From the NCBI GenBank assembly GCA_963706295.1, contig CAVPLW010000006.1, positions 337,277 through 401,276 of the forward strand: a DNA stretch of 64,000 bases, given 5' to 3'. Under the pieces are notes generated by a model, which saw only the letters and a list, made by a program, of their open reading frames with translations, did no database searches and had not been told where the DNA came from. Of this stretch, positions 37,553-58,089 are shown in pieces. Positions within the stretch are counted from its first letter, which is position 1, and each line of letters starts with the position of its first letter. A program made the translations under genes and the position numbers. The stretch is from an uncultured delta proteobacterium (lineage in GTDB: Bacteria; Desulfobacterota; Desulfobacteria; Desulfobacterales; UBA11574).

Positions 37553-38020
37553 TTATTCAACAAGTGCGATGCATAAGGCGGCAATACCCTCCCCCTTCCC
37601 CATCATTCCAAGAGTTTCTAATGTCGTTGCTTTAACATTAACACACTCCGGTTCAATTTCAATTGTTCTTGCAATATTTTTTTGCATTGTTTCTTTAAAT
37701 GATGTAATTTTAGGTGCTTCGGCCATAATGGTTGAATCTAAATTGATGACCGTGAAGCCTTTGTCTTTCAAGAATTTATACGTTTTTGAGAGAATTATCA
37801 TGCTTGAAATATCTTTTAACTTTGGATCGGTATCCGGAAAATGAAAACCAATATCACCCAAACCGGCTGCCCCCAACAGTGCGTCGCACACGGCATGAAT
37901 AAGGACATCAGCGTCAGAATGCCCAAGCAGACCTTTTTCAAAAGGAATGGTGACTCCGCCCAATACCAGCTTGCGCCCTTCAACCAACCGATGAACGTCA
38001 TATCCTATACCGATGCGCAT
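37553..38020 (-). CDS. ispF: 2-C-methyl-D-erythritol 2,4-cyclodiphosphate synthase
   Basis: MRIGIGYDVHRL...GHSDADVLIHA is present in a 155-aa protein. Confidence 0.93.
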   Translation of the reverse strand: MRIGIGYDVHRLVEGRKLVLGGVTIPFEKGLLGHSDADVLIHAVCDALLGAAGLGDIGFHFPDTDPKLKDISSMIILSKTYKFLKDKGFTVINLDSTIMAEAPKITSFKETMQKNIARTIEIEPECVNVKATTLETLGMMGKGEGIAALCIALVE

Positions 38021-38187
38021 TTTTCCTCACAATTTTTTATTATAGCCATATTGAAAAACATTCATATATCATATAATAAATATCACAAAAATATAAATTT
38101 ATGCAAAGCCTATAATAAATCACTATTGTCCCAAAACGATCTTATAGTTGAACATGAGTTATTATATTTAACAGTTCATCCGTAAAT

Positions 38188-38364
38188 GTTCGGTTCCAGG
38201 TTCAGGGTTCAAAGTTCAAGGGTTATAATATATGAACAGAAGGTGGGAAGGTGAGAAGATCAGAAGGTCGGCTTTTCTCAGACTTTCCAACCTTCTTACG
38301 TTCTAACTTTCTTAACTTCTTAAAAAATAGGAATCTTCAACATGGAACCGTGAACCTTGAACCC
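38188..38364. repeat. Word-hairpin element, family B copy 1 (GGTTCAAGG / GAAGGT words)
   Basis: It shares about 125 nt of near-identity with 55252..55379. The outer arms ggttcaagggtt and ggaaccgtgaaccttgaaccc are inverted. It carries an extra 24-nt word duplication at 38245-38268. Confidence 0.85.
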
Positions 38365-38386
38365 TCAACCTATATTCATATATGCC

Positions 38387-38575
38387 ATGCCGATTCGAAT
38401 GATAGCACAAGAGCTTTACCGTCTGATCCAAGAAGTGGAAAGGCTGGAGAAAAATTTAAAGAGCGTTCCCTTTGAAAAACAAGCCGAAATCAAAGATCAA
38501 CTTCGCAAAACAAAGGCTGAAAGGGATCGTGTGCATGCGATTCTTGAGGGCAAAAAAGATCACCGGCCCAAATAA
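38387..38575 (+). CDS. Small charged helical protein (62 aa), hypothetical
   Basis: I moved the start to the ATG at 38387 because the ORF-track start at 38357 lies inside repeat B1. The sequence MPIRMIAQELYRLIQEVERLEKNLK looks like a coiled coil. Confidence 0.4.
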   Translation: MPIRMIAQELYRLIQEVERLEKNLKSVPFEKQAEIKDQLRKTKAERDRVHAILEGKKDHRPK

Positions 38576-49279: not shown

Positions 49280-52279
49280 TCAGCCCGCTACATCTAACGC
49301 CTCCACCCGATTTACGGTCATGGTGATGGCGCCGAAGTCTTCTTCCACCTTCCCGTGGAGGATAAAGGGACGGCTTCGATCCAGGATGGCACAGAAGCGG
49401 CGGTAGGCTTTGGGGAAAAAGATCGTTTCAATCAGCCCGGTGTCGTCTTCAAAAGTCAGAAATTCCATGGCATCGCCATGCTTGGTATGCACAACCTTTC
49501 CGGTAATCAACAGACCGGCAATGCGAACATGACGGCCGATGAAGCGATGCAAGTCCATGGCTTTGACAGTCTTTAGTTTCCTTAACGTTTCGGCGTATAA
49601 CATCATGGGATGCCGATCGCACAAAAAACCCAGGGCTGCATATTCTTGCCGCAAACGCTCTCTTTTCTTCTCCGGCGGGAACGCCGGTTTTGGCACTGCC
49701 ATCCTCTCATTAAACAAATCCCCTGCCCCGTATCGGTTTGATCTGGATTTTTGCCAGCAGGCCAGCTCCCACAACAGGGCAGCGCGATTCTCTTTTGGAT
49801 GAAGCAAATCAAAAGCACCAGCGTTAATCAGAGAGCGGGCTTCAGGGCTGGCCGGCCGAATTCGATCAAGGAAATCAACGATGTCGTTGTAAGGTTTTTC
49901 TTTGCGCCCTGAAACAATACGTTTGCATGTTTCTGAACTTACATTCTTTGCGGACGACAATCCCACCCGAATGATTCCAGCGCTGCCTTTCCAAAGGATA
50001 TCGCTGTTGTTTACGTCAGGGGGCAGAATTTCCACACCCGTGCGGCGTGCTTCCGACACGTAAGCAAAGGTGCTGTAAAAACCGCCCTGATTGCTGATGA
50101 CCGCGGCCATGAACTCTGCAGGATAATGGGTCTTCAGATAGGCTGCCTGGAAAGAGACCCGGGCATAGCTTGCACTATGAGGCTTGCAAAATGAATAACC
50201 GCTGAAACTCATCATCATGCTCCAGATGGCCGAAATCTGATCGTTACGAACCCCCCTTGCTTGTGCACCTGAAGTGAAACGCGCTTGATAATCATCCAAT
50301 TTTCGGTTCTTATCTTTCTTGGACATAATCTTGCGAAGGCCATCAGCGTCAGCATGTGAAAATCCGGCCAGCGCCACAGCGGTTTTGGAAACATCCTCTT
50401 GATAGACCATGATTCCATGGGTTTCCTCAAGCACATCCGAAAGTAAGGGATGAATCGGCTCCCATCTGCCGCCATGCAGGCGACGGACGTATTCACGGAT
50501 AAACTCATTGGCCGCCGGCCGTATGATACTGCTGTTGATTACCAGATGTTCAAAATCGCCGACCTTTGTCTTTTTCTGCAACATGCGCATGGCGGGGCTT
50601 TCGATGTAAAAGCAGCCCATGGTATTCCCTTTTGCCACATTCGCCTGTGTCGCGCCATCATCTTCCGGCTCCCAGAGCTGCTCGTCAAATACCGTACGGT
50701 TATTCCTAAGATTTGCAATGGCATCTCGGATAACACCCAGGCTGCGATTACCGAGAAGATCGATTTTAACCAGACCGCTCTCTTCTGCAGCATCTTTTTC
50801 CCACTGAATAATCGGAACACCTTTGGGGGCAAGTTCAACAGGAACATAATTGTCTATGGGCTCAGGGGTAACCACCACACCACCCGGATGAACAGAAATG
50901 TAGCGTGGAATACCAATGATGTACCGGGCTGTACGAATAATTTTTGGCCAGGGCCTTGGAAAATCAAATTCGGAAAGCTCGGGCAATTGTTTAAGCTTTT
51001 GAAGAAAATCTTCTTTAGTGTGATCCGCTCGCCAGAACCATGGAAGACGTTTGGTGACACGGCCGATCTCTTGATCGGTAAGCCCGAAGACCTTGGCCAC
51101 CTCCCGTATCGCCATGCGCGGCCGAAAAGTGACGTGATTACAGATCAGCGCAGCGTGGCCTTTATATTGGTCCAATACGGACTGCAAAACCTTGTCCCGT
51201 TCATCCCAGGCAAAATCGATATCGATATCCGGTGAATCTGAACGCCCGGGGTTCAGAAACCGCTCGAAATACAAGTTGTGCTTGATGGGACAGACATTGG
51301 TAATTCCCAGGCTGTAAGCTACCAGTGATGCCGCACCGCTTCCCCGGCCGCAAATACGCGGGCTGCGAGACACGATATCCTGAACCACAAGAAAATATGA
51401 TGAAAATCCCATCTCCTTAATGATACGAATTTCATGCTCCAGGCGATCCACAACGGTTTCAGACAGATCATCTCCGTACCGTTTTTTCGCCCCCTTATAA
51501 GCGACATCCCGCAGTGCTTGATCGGCACCATTTGATTGTATATCGGTCCATGGCGGCAGAACAAGCCCACGGCAAGGACCGGTGAATGTCAACTGTTCTG
51601 CAATGGCTTCAGTGGCTCGAAGTACATCCGGCCAGATGGCAAAACGTCTGGTATACTCGGATGCCGTTGCCAGCCATGCGTCGGGCGACGTTGTCTCTTC
51701 CGTCGTTAATCGGGAAAGAGAGGTGTTCAAATCAATGGCCCGCAGTATCCGGTGTGTTTTGAAATCATCCGGATCTGTAAAAAAACTTCCCGGCGTGAAC
51801 AGCATCGGAATGCCAAGATATCGGGACGTCTTCCGCAATCGAAGGGCAATGCCGTCCGGTTTGCCTGAAACCGCCGCTGCAACCGTTAATCCGGCTTCGT
51901 GCCACTGTGTCAAAAGCTCTGGATGTTGTGTGATGATCACCAATCCTCCGGCATGGGTGAGGATAACGGATTTTAGGTCAAACGCCGCATCAATATGACG
52001 ACGTGTAATGATACGGCAAAGATTACGGTAGCCCTGATCGCTTTTCACAAGACAAACAGCTCGGTATCCGGTTTCGGAATCCGTCAGTTCCGCACCGACA
52101 ATCGGAGTTATATTCTCGCGCTTACAACTCTTTAAAAAGGGCCACAGGCCGTATAAATTATTGGTATCCGTGATCGCAAGACGGCGATAACCCCGTTTTT
52201 TTGCAGCAGCACAGATCTTCTCCGGAGAGCATGTGCCCCACATCAATGAATAATACGAATGAACGGTCAAAGGAACCAT
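49280..52279 (-). CDS. dnaE2: Error-prone DNA polymerase III alpha-like subunit (DnaE2/ImuC)
   Basis: It has a PHP N-terminus (VHSYYSLMWGT...AITDTNNLYG) and a PolIIIA core (PDIDIDF, GIPRYISVHPGGVVV, SIIRPA). It is 999 aa and lies downstream of imuB and lexA. Confidence 0.9.
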   Translation of the reverse strand: MVPLTVHSYYSLMWGTCSPEKICAAAKKRGYRRLAITDTNNLYGLWPFLKSCKRENITPIVGAELTDSETGYRAVCLVKSDQGYRNLCRIITRRHIDAAFDLKSVILTHAGGLVIITQHPELLTQWHEAGLTVAAAVSGKPDGIALRLRKTSRYLGIPMLFTPGSFFTDPDDFKTHRILRAIDLNTSLSRLTTEETTSPDAWLATASEYTRRFAIWPDVLRATEAIAEQLTFTGPCRGLVLPPWTDIQSNGADQALRDVAYKGAKKRYGDDLSETVVDRLEHEIRIIKEMGFSSYFLVVQDIVSRSPRICGRGSGAASLVAYSLGITNVCPIKHNLYFERFLNPGRSDSPDIDIDFAWDERDKVLQSVLDQYKGHAALICNHVTFRPRMAIREVAKVFGLTDQEIGRVTKRLPWFWRADHTKEDFLQKLKQLPELSEFDFPRPWPKIIRTARYIIGIPRYISVHPGGVVVTPEPIDNYVPVELAPKGVPIIQWEKDAAEESGLVKIDLLGNRSLGVIRDAIANLRNNRTVFDEQLWEPEDDGATQANVAKGNTMGCFYIESPAMRMLQKKTKVGDFEHLVINSSIIRPAANEFIREYVRRLHGGRWEPIHPLLSDVLEETHGIMVYQEDVSKTAVALAGFSHADADGLRKIMSKKDKNRKLDDYQARFTSGAQARGVRNDQISAIWSMMMSFSGYSFCKPHSASYARVSFQAAYLKTHYPAEFMAAVISNQGGFYSTFAYVSEARRTGVEILPPDVNNSDILWKGSAGIIRVGLSSAKNVSSETCKRIVSGRKEKPYNDIVDFLDRIRPASPEARSLINAGAFDLLHPKENRAALLWELACWQKSRSNRYGAGDLFNERMAVPKPAFPPEKKRERLRQEYAALGFLCDRHPMMLYAETLRKLKTVKAMDLHRFIGRHVRIAGLLITGKVVHTKHGDAMEFLTFEDDTGLIETIFFPKAYRRFCAILDRSRPFILHGKVEEDFGAITMTVNRVEALDVAG

Positions 52280-52283
52280 GTTA

Positions 52284-52320
52284 GGATTGATGATTTATGA
52301 TTGACGATTTAAGATTGAAA
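52284..52320. repeat. Word element, family E half copy (GATTGATGA words)
   Basis: ggattgatgatttatgattgacgatttaagattgaaa matches 20 of its first 21 nt with the left arm at 54424. It lies in the imuB-dnaE2 spacer. Confidence 0.7.
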
Positions 52321-52361
52321 ATTTAAATAAGCCTTTGTCAATTCTTCCCCAAATAATCAAT

Positions 52362-54380: not shown

Positions 54381-54423
54381 GTGTTGCTCTGAACCTAAAC
54401 GATTTCGGAAGAATTCCCTTTTT

Positions 54424-54611
54424 GGATTGATGATTTATGATTGTTGATTGACGATTGAAGGCTTCGCTCCGGTAATTTAAGTTTTCACTTTTCAACCATC
54501 AATTTTCAATTGATCTGCCGCCGACTCCTATTTCCTTTTTTCTCTTTCCTATTTCAACCTCTGCCGGTTCAATCAACAATCGACAATCATCAATCATCAG
54601 TCGACAATCCC
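54424..54611. repeat. Word-hairpin element, family E full copy
   Basis: The left arm ggattgatgatttatgattgttgattgacgattgaag (54424-54460) is an imperfect reverse complement of the right arm caatcaacaatcgacaatcatcaatcatcagtcgacaatccc (54570-54611). The interior holds a pyrimidine word tract that is the reverse complement of the words at 7203-7240. Confidence 0.8.
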
Positions 54612-55231
54612 ATGGGTCCTCTCTGAACACCGATAACCTTACCCTGGATCAGGATCTCATTGAAATCATACCTGACCGCCTTGTAGGCAGGATTTTCAGG
54701 ACGCAGCTCAATATGTTTTTTTCTGCGAAAAAAACGCTTGACCGTCGCTTCTTCTTGATTGATCAGGGCCACAACGATTTCACCATCTTCGGCAAATTGA
54801 CGCGGCTCACAAATCACCAGGTCTCCATCCAAAATAGCGGCATCCCTCATCGAGTCGCCTTTTACCCTAAGCGCAAACAGGTTTGGACCACGGTACAAGG
54901 TTGAATCGATCACAACGCTCCCACCCCATTCCTGCTGGGCATACAACGGTAATCCAGCAGCGATGTCCCCCACGATAGGCACTTCCCGCCACCGCATGAT
55001 GCCTGCCGTTTTTCGGATGCGATTCAGCAGATGGATCGTGCGGCTGTAACGACCGTCACGTTTGAGAATTCCTTTTTTCTCAAGCGCTTTTATAAGCTGA
55101 GATATCGCCGCATGGCTCACCCCCATCTCAACTGCCGACTGCCGTAAGCTGGGCGCTTTCCCGGTTCTGATAATTTCATGCTCCAAATAGCTAAAAAATC
55201 GTTGCTGTTTTGGAGTGAGTTCTGGTTGCAT
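54590..55231 (-). CDS. lexA: LexA repressor
   Basis: It has a wHTH N-terminus, the Ala-Gly cleavage site (VGDIAAGLP), the Ser nucleophile (VKGDSM) and Lys (ATVKRF). Confidence 0.92.
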   Translation of the reverse strand: MQPELTPKQQRFFSYLEHEIIRTGKAPSLRQSAVEMGVSHAAISQLIKALEKKGILKRDGRYSRTIHLLNRIRKTAGIMRWREVPIVGDIAAGLPLYAQQEWGGSVVIDSTLYRGPNLFALRVKGDSMRDAAILDGDLVICEPRQFAEDGEIVVALINQEEATVKRFFRRKKHIELRPENPAYKAVRYDFNEILIQGKVIGVQRGPMGLSTDD

Positions 55232-55251
55232 GGAACAAATCTCCCTATCAC

Positions 55252-55379
55252 GGGTTCAAGGGTTATAATATATGAACAGAAGGTCGGCTTTTCTCAGACT
55301 TTCCAACCTTCTTCCGTTCTAACTTTCTTAACTTCTTAAAAAATAGGAATCTTCAACCTGGAACCGTGAACTCTGAACC
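55252..55379. repeat. Word-hairpin element, family B copy 2
   Basis: It is near-identical to 38209..38364 apart from the 24-nt insertion in copy 1 and a few substitutions. Confidence 0.85.
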
Positions 55380-55415
55380 TGTAAACGGTTACTATATTTC
55401 TGATTAACATAGCAT

Positions 55416-55451
55416 AATGTAAATGTCAATGTAAATATTATTGTAAAGCTA
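55416..55451. promoter_or_regulatory. Three phased 12-nt direct repeats (AATGTAAATGTC / AATGTAAATATT / ATTGTAAAGCTA)
   Basis: TGTAAA occurs at 55418, 55430 and 55442, an exact 12-nt period, and a fourth time at 55380. The repeats lie in the divergent lexA / metallophosphoesterase intergenic region. Confidence 0.35.
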
Positions 55452-55591: not shown

Positions 55592-56317
55592 ATGAGAATG
55601 GCGGTGATATCTGATATTCATGCTAACCTGGAAGCGTTCAAACAGGTTCTTGTCGATATCGGGAAATCAAATATTGACAATACGATTTGTCTGGGCGACA
55701 ACATCGGTTACGGTCCTGAGCCTGAGCAGGTTGTCGCCATGATCAAAGATCATAATATCCCAACGGTTATGGGAAATCATGAACTGGCCGTGATTGATCA
55801 AAAATATCTATCTTTATTTAATCCCCTTGCCCGGAAATCCTTGCTAAAAACAATCGAATTGCTATCTGAAGAAACCATAAACTTCATTTCCGGATTAGAA
55901 CCATTCTTGATTCGTTATGAATGCCGTTTTGTTCACGGCTTCCCGCCTGATTCGGCGGCCATGTATCTTTTTCAAGTTCCAGAAGATGAACTGCTGCTAA
56001 CTTTCAAGCAAATGAAAGAAAGAATCTGTTTTTTAGGACATACTCACCGTCTTGAAATCATCGACTTTAACGGCCAAATTGTTACCCGCGAACCGCTAAC
56101 TCAGAGTACCACCAGCCTTGACAGGGATCGTCAGTATATCATCAATATCGGAAGTGTGGGACAGCCAAGAGACGGCAATAATTGTGCAAAATACGTTATC
56201 TGGGATACATTGAACGATAACATCGAGGTAAAATTCATACCTTATGATATTGTTTCGGTTATCGATAAAATTATAGCAGCCGGTCTTCCCACTGAACATG
56301 CACTTCGTCTTTTATAA
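55592..56317 (+). CDS. Calcineurin-like metallophosphoesterase, paralogue 2
   Basis: AVISDIHAN, LGDNIGYG, GNHE, GHTH and GSVGQPRDG are present. It is collinear with 18793..19539 to the C-terminus (AAGLPTEHALRL versus EANLPEFLAKRL). Confidence 0.8.
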   Translation: MRMAVISDIHANLEAFKQVLVDIGKSNIDNTICLGDNIGYGPEPEQVVAMIKDHNIPTVMGNHELAVIDQKYLSLFNPLARKSLLKTIELLSEETINFISGLEPFLIRYECRFVHGFPPDSAAMYLFQVPEDELLLTFKQMKERICFLGHTHRLEIIDFNGQIVTREPLTQSTTSLDRDRQYIINIGSVGQPRDGNNCAKYVIWDTLNDNIEVKFIPYDIVSVIDKIIAAGLPTEHALRLL

Positions 56318-57719: not shown

Positions 57720-57793
57720 GTTACCAAGGAGTACAAATCCTGCTCGACATTATTTACTGATATGGTGACTTCGATATCAAAACGGAAAAAGTT

Positions 57794-58023
57794 ACAAGTG
57801 CCTAAAGTGAGCTAAAGTGAGCTAAAGCCCGCCCTGGTGCGCATTGCTCATATTTTGACCTGACCTATGCTTCATTACAAAAATAACTTTTTGAGTAAAG
57901 AGTTTTGGTAACCGGTCTGGGCCAGGGTTTAAAGAATGTATAGCCAATTATATTTTAATGACAGCGCGTTAGCGCTACCTTAACTTTAGGCACTTTAAAT
58001 CACTTCAAACTTTAGGCACTTGT
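57794..58023. repeat. Word-hairpin element, family A copy 2
   Basis: The termini are a perfect inverted repeat, acaagtgcctaaagt ... actttaggcacttgt. The arms consist of GTGCCTAAA/GTGAGCTAAA words. The centre is longer than in copy 1 but shares a caattata..ttttaatg segment. Confidence 0.85.
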
Positions 58024-58089
58024 GAATCTGTAGGAATCTGCCTGTCCCGTAGCTTCGGAAGCTGGCATTGGGATGGCCTATTAGCACAT

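Follow-up and report, generated by a model that had tools for sequence, protein, structure and literature searches.

The window analysed here, a stretch of 64,000 nucleotides (nt) from an uncultured delta proteobacterium (contig CAVPLW010000006.1), carries two intergenic copies, 17 kb apart, of an element that we call Family B, a non-coding composite repeat in which one hairpin of short tandem words is nested within the loop of another (Table 1). The genome of this stretch is referred to as G000 and its contigs by C-numbers, and other G-numbers denote the genomes of relatives. Copy 1 lies between ispF (37553-38020, minus strand, start at 38020) and a small open reading frame (ORF) of 62 aa with its ATG at 38387, and copy 2 between the lexA start codon (55229-55231, minus strand) and a divergent gene beginning near 55593, as the initial annotation had stated. 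The small protein aligns from ATG 38387 in all relatives, with upstream conservation ending just before CATAYATGCCATG, and the TTG at 38357 falls within a repeat arm of copy 1, so the earlier suspicion that a start at 38357 is an artefact of the repeat holds.

The copies had been described as near-identical at 38188-38364 and 55252-55379. Alignment and repeat finding confirm this, with a 106-nt block 95% identical (38258-38363 versus 55274-55379) and a 34-nt block 97% identical (38214-38247 versus 55254-55287), and correct the extents to 38180-38371 and 55243-55389. The two blocks are parted by 24 extra bases in copy 1 (38245-38268), made up of three 8-nt words. When further copies were sought in the genome, no other full copy was found, only one partial chimera (C10:68954-69150), about 12 hairpins of the inner type and about 27 word arrays.

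Table 1. Coordinates of the Family B copies, their parts and associated features in the window
Feature	Position	Strand	Basis or remark
Family B copy 1, full composite, 192 nt	38180..38371	+	ends placed by aligning shell termini of other loci and genera
Outer left arm with 'T end' CCGTAAATGTTCGGTTCC, then GTTCNNN words	38180..38223	+	near-identical to arm ends in other genera
Spacer 1 TATAATATATGAA, half of the original outer-hairpin loop	38224..38236	+	match to minimal-shell loop
Inner left arm, four 8-nt words CAGAAGGT GGGAAGGT GAGAAGAT CAGAAGGT	38237..38268	+	38245-38268 missing from copy 2
Loop CGGCTTTTCTCAGACTTTCC	38269..38288	+	conserved across the inner-hairpin family
Inner right arm, four complementary 8-nt words AACCTTCT TACGTTCT AACTTTCT TAACTTCT	38289..38322	+	fold
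Spacer 2 AAAAATAGGAATCTTCAACAT, other half of the outer loop, and junction motif CTTCAAC	38323..38343	+	
Outer right arm GGAACC GTGAACC TTGAACC CTCAACCT, conserved non-T end	38344..38371	+	right junction common to the ispF-site copies of G012 and G007
Putative minimum gene-conversion tract, lexA-type inside ispF-type arms	38233..38345	+	diagnostic-site map; maximum 38214-38356
Family B copy 2, 147 nt	55243..55389	+	T end abuts the lexA ribosome-binding site
Lone remaining inner-left word CAGAAGGT of copy 2; site of the putative 24-nt slippage deletion	55277..55284	+	
Promoter-like TTTACA-18-TATGTT, TG before second hexamer	55406..55435	-	consensus match and conservation only; in block TAATGTAAATGTCAATGTAAAT

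Architecture and folding of the composite

The two layers of copy 1 come from two different repeat families of G000. The inner part, a hairpin built from 8-nt AGAAGGT/ACCTTCT words, is present in about 12 copies in the genome with a homologous loop; most of these copies occupy another, three-layer composite that is abundant in the genome (C5:36.5k, C14:124k, C14:214k, C14:224.8k, C1:70.6k, C2:17k, C2:150.7k and C22:126.8k). The outer shell is formed by 7-8-nt GTTCARG/CYTGAAC words and has asymmetric conserved ends, AGGTTGAG(C)G-GTTCA and CCTGAACCTGGAACCGAWCAKTTWAGGT, also written AGGTTGAGCG-GTTCAGGG and GGAACCGATCAGTTTAGGT; arrays of GTTCNNN words outside ORFs number about 27 in the genome versus about 4 in a shuffled genome. 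A minimal shell at C14:123203-123282 has a loop, TTAGATATATAATTTAATCTTCCATCAACC, that equals spacers 1 and 2 of Family B joined, and the inner hairpin therefore sits in what was once the loop of the outer hairpin.

When 60 relatives were searched at the DNA level, with a genus sample of 16 genomes, full-length composites proved confined to the genus and present in most of its genomes. From these, 18 composite copies at 8 or more distinct loci were extracted; the order of arms, spacers and loop is identical in all of them, and the composite is therefore an inherited unit. The shell ends recur in other genera of the family, with 93-97% identity over ~40 nt in G023, G031 and G034, G023 alone holding at least 10 such copies.

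The inverted arms noted in the initial annotation are real and nested. The RNA of copy 1 folds at -63.6 kcal/mol into two nested stems (z -5.2; 0 of 200 dinucleotide shuffles were equally good), and its DNA fold has a z of -4.4. Copy 2 folds more weakly (z -2.0) because only one inner-left word of four is left and most of the outer-left words are gone. For orthologues at the lexA site and for other family loci z was calculated from mononucleotide shuffles; the lexA-site copies are the best folders (z -4.3 to -8.6), and scores for copies at other loci are weak. The earlier description of a structured element thus stands for both copies and the lexA-site orthologues and has weak support for family members elsewhere. 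Across 16 inner-hairpin copies there is hardly any variation in the loop-closing GGC...TCC or in the word next to the loop, and the family loop reads YGGC...TCTCAGA...TCCR.

In the partial chimera at C10:68954-69150, the left half belongs to the three-layer composite (a GC-rich piece, ACGAATAAACAC words and AGAAGG words), and the loop and right arm are those of Family B. This arrangement, which stops 25 nt short of a start codon, reads as further evidence of exchange through shared words. Additional GC-rich hairpins are nested as inserts in copies of G004, G012, G009, G010 and G008. A 48-nt GC-rich mini-hairpin, GCCCGCCCGCCTCGCCTGAACGAGCCCCAGGCTCGCGATGGCGGGCAG, is inserted at one and the same position of the inner right arm in the lexA-site copies of G004, G012 and G009 (L042, L046 and L045, respectively) and is absent from G000; a second, TTTACCCGCCTTCGGCGGCGCCAGAGGCGACCAGGG, likewise nested within word arms, has three copies in G000 (C2:150618, C10:68955 and C15:33640). 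The repeat finder also returned other word-hairpin families in the window, at 1805-1931, 57787-58027, 52276-52333 and 54416-54459, with words of the AAGTGCCTAAAGT and GATTGATGA types.

Likeness of the two copies and history of their sites

Copy 1 was compared column by column with the lexA-site copy of G011 and the ispF-site copy of G012. Of the ~40 diagnostic columns that lie between 38233 and 38345, all but one, an indel column, show the lexA type in copy 1, which also has the spacer variants ATATGAAC and GGAATC, which are confined to the lexA-site clade. Its outer arms and flanks, on the other hand, match the ispF type and the family consensus, with GGTTCAGGGTTCAAAGTTCAAGGG as left arm and GTGAACCTTGAACC-CTCAAC as right arm, together with the junction shared by ispF-site copies. 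Copy 1 is thus a mosaic, in which a lexA-site tract of 113-143 nt would have replaced the core of a resident ispF-site element, and such a mosaic argues for gene conversion between dispersed copies, not for a fresh insertion. The conversion breakpoints would lie in the shared arms. The converted tract also takes in the outer-loop spacers, which runs counter to the alternative of a core inserted into an existing shell.

The 24-nt difference between the copies, previously taken as an insertion or word expansion in copy 1, is real at 38245-38268, and its direction is the reverse. Since the lexA-site copies of G011, G009, G003 and G013 carry three to four words at this position, the difference is a deletion in copy 2, bounded there by two identical CAGAAGGT words. 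Copy 1 keeps all four inner-left words, like the lexA-site copies of G011 and G009; the conversion donor was therefore intact, and the loss at the lexA site came later. The missing three words look like a typical slippage deletion that followed the conversion.

The history of the sites was read from their orthologues. At the lexA site, compared in 12 genomes of the genus, seven species have the full element (G000, G003, G004, G011, G012, G013 and G009), three have remnants (a few GTTCAAG words in G001, words with GC-rich mini-inserts in G005, and words around a different inner element in G010), and G008 and G006 have 23 unrelated nt instead. At the ispF site the same right junction is found in G000, G012 (79% identity, with a different loop) and G007 (partly deleted), and the remaining nine genomes with a readable spacer hold other sequence: an unrelated spacer of ~135 nt shared by G008, G004, G015, G011 and G009, and different small elements in G003, G013, G005 and G010/G002. 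A third orthologous site has the composite in G009, G010 and G005 and other elements in G000 (C6:72806-73208), G004, G011 and G015. In a rough two-gene tree, species with and without the element are intermixed; G008, which lacks the lexA-site copy, is among the closest relatives of G000, and the copy-bearing G013 and G007 are distant, several nodes of the tree being weakly supported. The simplest reading of this distribution is old occupancy followed by loss and replacement, and these intergenic sites are turnover hot spots for several families of small elements.

Some of the replacing sequences can be described further. The occupant of C6:72806-73208 is a non-coding element of ~270-400 nt, AACACTTTAGC...GGACTAAACTATTACAAA, which also fills the ispF site of G003 (L057); the shorter AT-rich ispF spacers of G008, G004, G011 and G015 may be shortened versions of this element. 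The lexA and ispF spacers of G010 (L048 and L062) have runs of N exactly within word-hairpin arms, and at the lexA site of that genome GTTCAAGG arms enclose TGCCTAAAGT words, those of Family A of the initial annotation, around the N run.

Recent copy-and-paste transposition, in which an active element resembling a miniature inverted-repeat transposable element (MITE) was mobilised in trans and moved whole between the lexA and ispF sites, would be in keeping with cores that are 95-97% identical at 17 kb from each other, long inverted arms and a family dispersed over at least 8 loci in the genus. It would not leave copy 1 with arms and a right junction that differ from the lexA-site arms and agree with the consensus and with the G012 and G007 copies at the ispF site, and both sites are filled in other species. 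No target duplication is visible, and no transposase is tied to the words, Y1 transposase genes being present but not flanked by them. We regard such a move as very unlikely. Of the two options in the initial annotation, recently active or recently homogenised, the second is upheld by the mosaic structure of copy 1, and the first finds no support, both sites being occupied by orthologous copies in other species.

We favour instead a history in which the composite arose a single time, no later than the origin of the genus, and was inherited as a unit at 8 loci or more. Comparison shows the lexA-site and ispF-site copies to be old residents, and the element is not actively jumping in G000. A gene-conversion tract of 113-143 nt would have copied the lexA-site core into the ispF-site shell, after which the lexA-site copy would have dropped three words by slippage between CAGAAGGT words. 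Change in the family would proceed by gain and loss of words, internal deletion and exchange between copies, as well as by insertion of small hairpins in arms or loop and by replacement with other small elements at the same sites.

The lexA leader and possible effects on neighbouring genes

Upstream of lexA the block TAATGTAAATGTCAATGTAAAT...TATAG is common to all 12 genus genomes, and the element lies between this promoter-like block and the lexA ribosome-binding site, which directly follows the T end (CGTGATAGGGAGATTTGTTCCATG). If the promoter-like site is used, the element would be a hairpin in the lexA mRNA leader, that is, a transcribed 5'-leader hairpin of ~150-190 nt ending just before the ribosome-binding site. 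The segment TAATGTAAATGTCAATGTAAATATTATTGTATAG (55400-55445), kept in the 12 genomes, has two direct copies of ATGTAAAT spaced by 12 nt, which overlap a TTGACA and the promoter-like site; the segment is a candidate lexA promoter combined with a LexA operator of unusual type. To define a LexA box, the genome was searched for another occurrence of the block upstream of lexA (ATGTAAATGTCAATGTAAAT, allowing 5 mismatches), and only chance-like matches were returned, which leaves the operator without a name. An outward promoter at the TATAAT of spacer 1 was set aside, as it has no acceptable -35 hexamer and was not called by the promoter scan.

Conservation at lexA was measured against third codon positions of the gene. 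The element is more conserved in the pairs G011-G013 (95.6% versus 76.6%), G000-G013 (96.9% versus 80.3%), G000-G011 (97.7% versus 88.0%) and G000-G004 (97.0% versus 88.5%), and it exceeds the third positions in four of the six comparisons with G000. Together with the best folding scores, this conservation suggests constraint at lexA. The leader hairpin may be tolerated or mildly useful there, for example in mRNA stability or processing, and an effect on lexA expression, as the initial annotation proposed, is plausible from position and conservation. At ispF the element lies upstream of, and beyond, a conserved promoter-like region, and its other end is 15 nt from the start of the small ORF; an effect on ispF is therefore less likely than one on the small ORF.

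A stronger functional claim would make Family B, or its T end and the word array next to it, a selected cis-regulatory module, leader- or operator-like and either protein-bound or processed by RNase, that couples the expression of lexA with that of the small ORF and pgi. The position of the element between the conserved promoter-like block and the ribosome-binding site is in keeping with such a role, and so is an element identity that in most comparisons exceeds that of lexA third codon positions, as is the distance of the T end from the start codon, which is 12-44 nt at lexA, C2:134431 (upstream of a tpiA-like gene), C1:76700, C6:17099, C6:312588, C10:69124 and loci of G014 and G031. By rough gene calls, ~13 of 19 arrays have the T end directed at a gene start 12-172 nt away, a trend that is not significant, and published TAACTGA arrays are likewise forward-oriented just upstream of start codons (PMC4679880). 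Set against this, lexA has no element in G008 and G006 and few words in G001, G005 and G010, most species lack the ispF-site copy, folding scores are weak at other loci, and neither covariation nor an Rfam family was found. The orientation trend suffers from crude gene calls, and the genes concerned share no theme. We think a selected module of this kind unlikely.

Alternatively, the element could be a gene in its own right, with loop and spacers encoding a trans-acting small RNA or with a real 74-aa ORF at 38251-38475. Loop and spacers are indeed conserved between non-orthologous copies, and the ORF spans the element. Searches of Rfam, however, gave no match at gathering score in the window and only chance-level scores for nine element loci (E 0.19-0.82), no promoter-like site within the element passed the scan, word indels and GC-rich inserts of 48-60 nt break the ORF in relatives, and its 3' part overlaps the conserved small ORF, which is read in a different frame. 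Such a gene is extremely improbable.

Taken as a whole, an old composite with a core homogenised by conversion, later slippage and a tolerated or mildly useful leader hairpin at lexA is, in our judgement, the probable account. A number of observations weigh against it. The ispF-type assignment of the copy 1 arms draws on few sites (four left, two right) in addition to word order and the right junction, and a second insertion of a lexA-type core into the loop of an existing shell would look similar. The species tree comes from two genes and has several weak nodes. A clean empty site was sought at the three orthologous loci (lexA, ispF and the third site) and none was found, each holding other sequence; the chemistry of insertion or excision and any target duplication are therefore unreadable. 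(AGGT stands in direct orientation at both shell ends and, being identical at all loci, is part of the element or a fixed target.) The promoter scan found one site versus 1.6 expected in shuffled sequence, the G012 and G009 comparisons show no constraint at lexA, and two species with an otherwise normal lexA lack the hairpin. Lastly, a covariation test on the 16 inner hairpins gave no signal in the inner stem. The consensus in that test holds only the loop-proximal 7+2 pairs, of which one is doubly changed; the stem shows sequence conservation rather than covariation, and the result speaks neither for selection on pairing nor against it.

Tandem arrays of short words and intergenic hairpins, common in many bacterial genomes, are still poorly explained, and this locus provides a clear, datable case history over 16 genomes of one genus. 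Word-armed hairpins are a widespread class in this lineage, to which Family B belongs, and Family B has not been mobile recently. What the locus adds is nesting inherited as a unit, turnover of sites (occupied, emptied and re-occupied), word slippage, nesting of mini-hairpins, and a short, arm-guided gene-conversion tract that would explain the near-identity of two dispersed copies. Near-identity of such repeats is thus not evidence of recent mobility, which matters for dating and counting 'active' repeats. The hairpin before lexA, the master SOS repressor, in most but not all species of the genus offers a natural contrast on its effect on expression.

Origin of the shell and comparison with known systems

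No coding element with shell ends was found in G000. The genome has six PF01797 (Y1 transposase/RAYT) matches, around which GTTCARG and AGAAGG words occur within 1.2 kb at genome background; RAYT or IS200-type Y1 transposases, though encoded in the genome, thus show no association with the words and were rejected as partners. The integron attC core (GTTRRRY) was excluded because the words have C at position 4.

The shell encloses other cargos too. Shells with a non-coding cargo of ~125 nt and the core CACCCAATRGAT (...GAGCTGT...) lie at C1:76505-76715, C4:20513-20720 and C22:59200-59414 (also listed as C22:59390); there are three to four such shells in G000 and at least six sequenced examples in G023 (L131-L137), and those of both genomes are without an Rfam match. 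A third cargo, at C2:134431-134640, contains the hairpin TTCACCCATTGGGTGAA; this shell lies directly upstream of the tpiA-like gene, which begins MDNRRPLIAGNWKM and looks like triosephosphate isomerase, and its T end is 23 nt from the start codon.

A coding comparison can be made with genes for four-helix-bundle proteins (PF05635), for which the genus has 79 matches. In G000 the four intact PF05635 genes are all flanked by inverted tandem-word arms, but of other words. In G006, one intact gene (G006:C64:5224-5535) stands between GGTTCARAGG/CYTGAACC word arms; the junction motif of this cassette, TTTCCA(T/G)CAACCYYGGAAC, resembles CTTCAACCTGGAAC of Family B, its outer ends give no more than a loose alignment with those of the shell, and its flanks have no orthologous locus in G000. 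This cassette is the only coding relative of the shell, and its product is not a known transposase. A link between Family B and the four-helix-bundle cassettes is suggestive, and descent from cassettes with such a gene between like arms would be the leading candidate for how the shells first arrived at their sites.

Carried further, the comparison would make the GTTCARG shell a gene-less relic, either the remnant of a PF05635 cassette or mobilised in trans by one. The word arms around four of four intact genes in G000 and the arms and similar junction motif of the G006 gene, from the same genus, speak for this. Yet a whole-genome six-frame search found no PF05635 gene or remnant at or beside either copy, whose interior of ~100 nt is words and loop, and no PF05635 gene of G000 has GTTCARG or AGAAGGT arms. 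With the loose alignment of the cassette ends and the missing orthologue of its flanks in G000, a relic of this kind is possible, if rather unlikely. Bolder still, the shell could be an undescribed small cassette with fixed asymmetric ends, interchangeable cargos, hairpin-directed entry and arm-guided conversion, whose lexA copy has been domesticated so that word number tunes the SOS repressor. Its cargos would be another hairpin, the ~125-nt non-coding core and the four-helix-bundle gene, and it would enter other hairpins at their loops as well as favoured intergenic sites; we consider this quite unlikely.

Many of the PF05635 matches are half-genes that cover residues 1-45 or 48-105 (G023: L131 and L132; G000: C2:104001-104245). 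The frames of G023 and G000 break at the same point, after a conserved ...PSN motif, where there is a small palindromic insert, CCTGCCCTGTTAAATAA...TTATTTAACAGGG, suggesting an element that targets the PF05635 family or was amplified with it.

Among described repeats, arrays of the heptamer TAACTGA are known from marine Beggiatoaceae, cyanobacteria and Bacteroidetes, and STRR sequences from heterocystous cyanobacteria (PMC4679880); the origin of the published arrays is unknown, and both regulator binding and transmission by mobile elements have been discussed (PMC4679880). Like Family B, these are intergenic tandem 7-nt words whose strain indels are mostly of whole words; the published arrays are forward-oriented near start codons (PMC4679880). 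In Family B the words are of 7-8 nt, the 24-nt indel is three words, and word numbers vary among the 18 copies. The published arrays are, however, direct repeats, with a single inverted case (PMC4679880), whereas those of Family B are complementary arms that form a hairpin in two nested layers. Family B also differs in its conserved non-word loops, spacers and ends, the 150-190-nt unit being conserved at several loci.

With REP, BIME and REPIN sequences Family B shares short extragenic palindromes, mosaic clusters, insertion of small elements and possible effects on mRNA. REPs, in contrast, are single palindromes of 20-40 nt with a conserved tetranucleotide that flank a RAYT gene, and Family B has arms of tandem words in variable number, which do not flank the Y1-transposase genes of G000.

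Correia (NEMIS) elements of Neisseria are co-transcribed MITEs of 100-200 nt whose inverted ends form hairpins that can be cut by RNase III and alter mRNA stability; the ends are fixed 26-bp inverted repeats and TA is duplicated. Family B is likewise gene-adjacent, with inverted ends and a predicted hairpin, but its arms are word arrays, its outer ends are asymmetric, no duplication is visible, and there are two to three copies per genome. Nested MITE insertions are known, and the outer arms of Family B resemble the terminal inverted repeats of MITEs in being complementary word arrays, except that their outermost 10-20 nt do not mirror each other (AGGTTGAG... versus ...CAKTTWAGGT).

BOX elements of Streptococcus pneumoniae are modular intergenic repeats with a middle module that is tandem in variable number; they are predicted to fold, lie near gene starts and have modules of 45-60 nt. 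Family B resembles them in its modular build, variable tandem number, folding and position, and differs in that BOX modules are not 7-8-nt words; to our knowledge, no nested hairpin-in-loop architecture has been described for BOX. In the PF05635 cassettes, which include the intervening sequences of 23S rRNA, a long hairpin likewise has its cargo in the loop, and inverted arrays of tandem 7-10-nt words serve as arms, as they also do in Family B. The difference lies in the setting and in the cargo, as Family B is not in rRNA and what its loop encloses is another hairpin.

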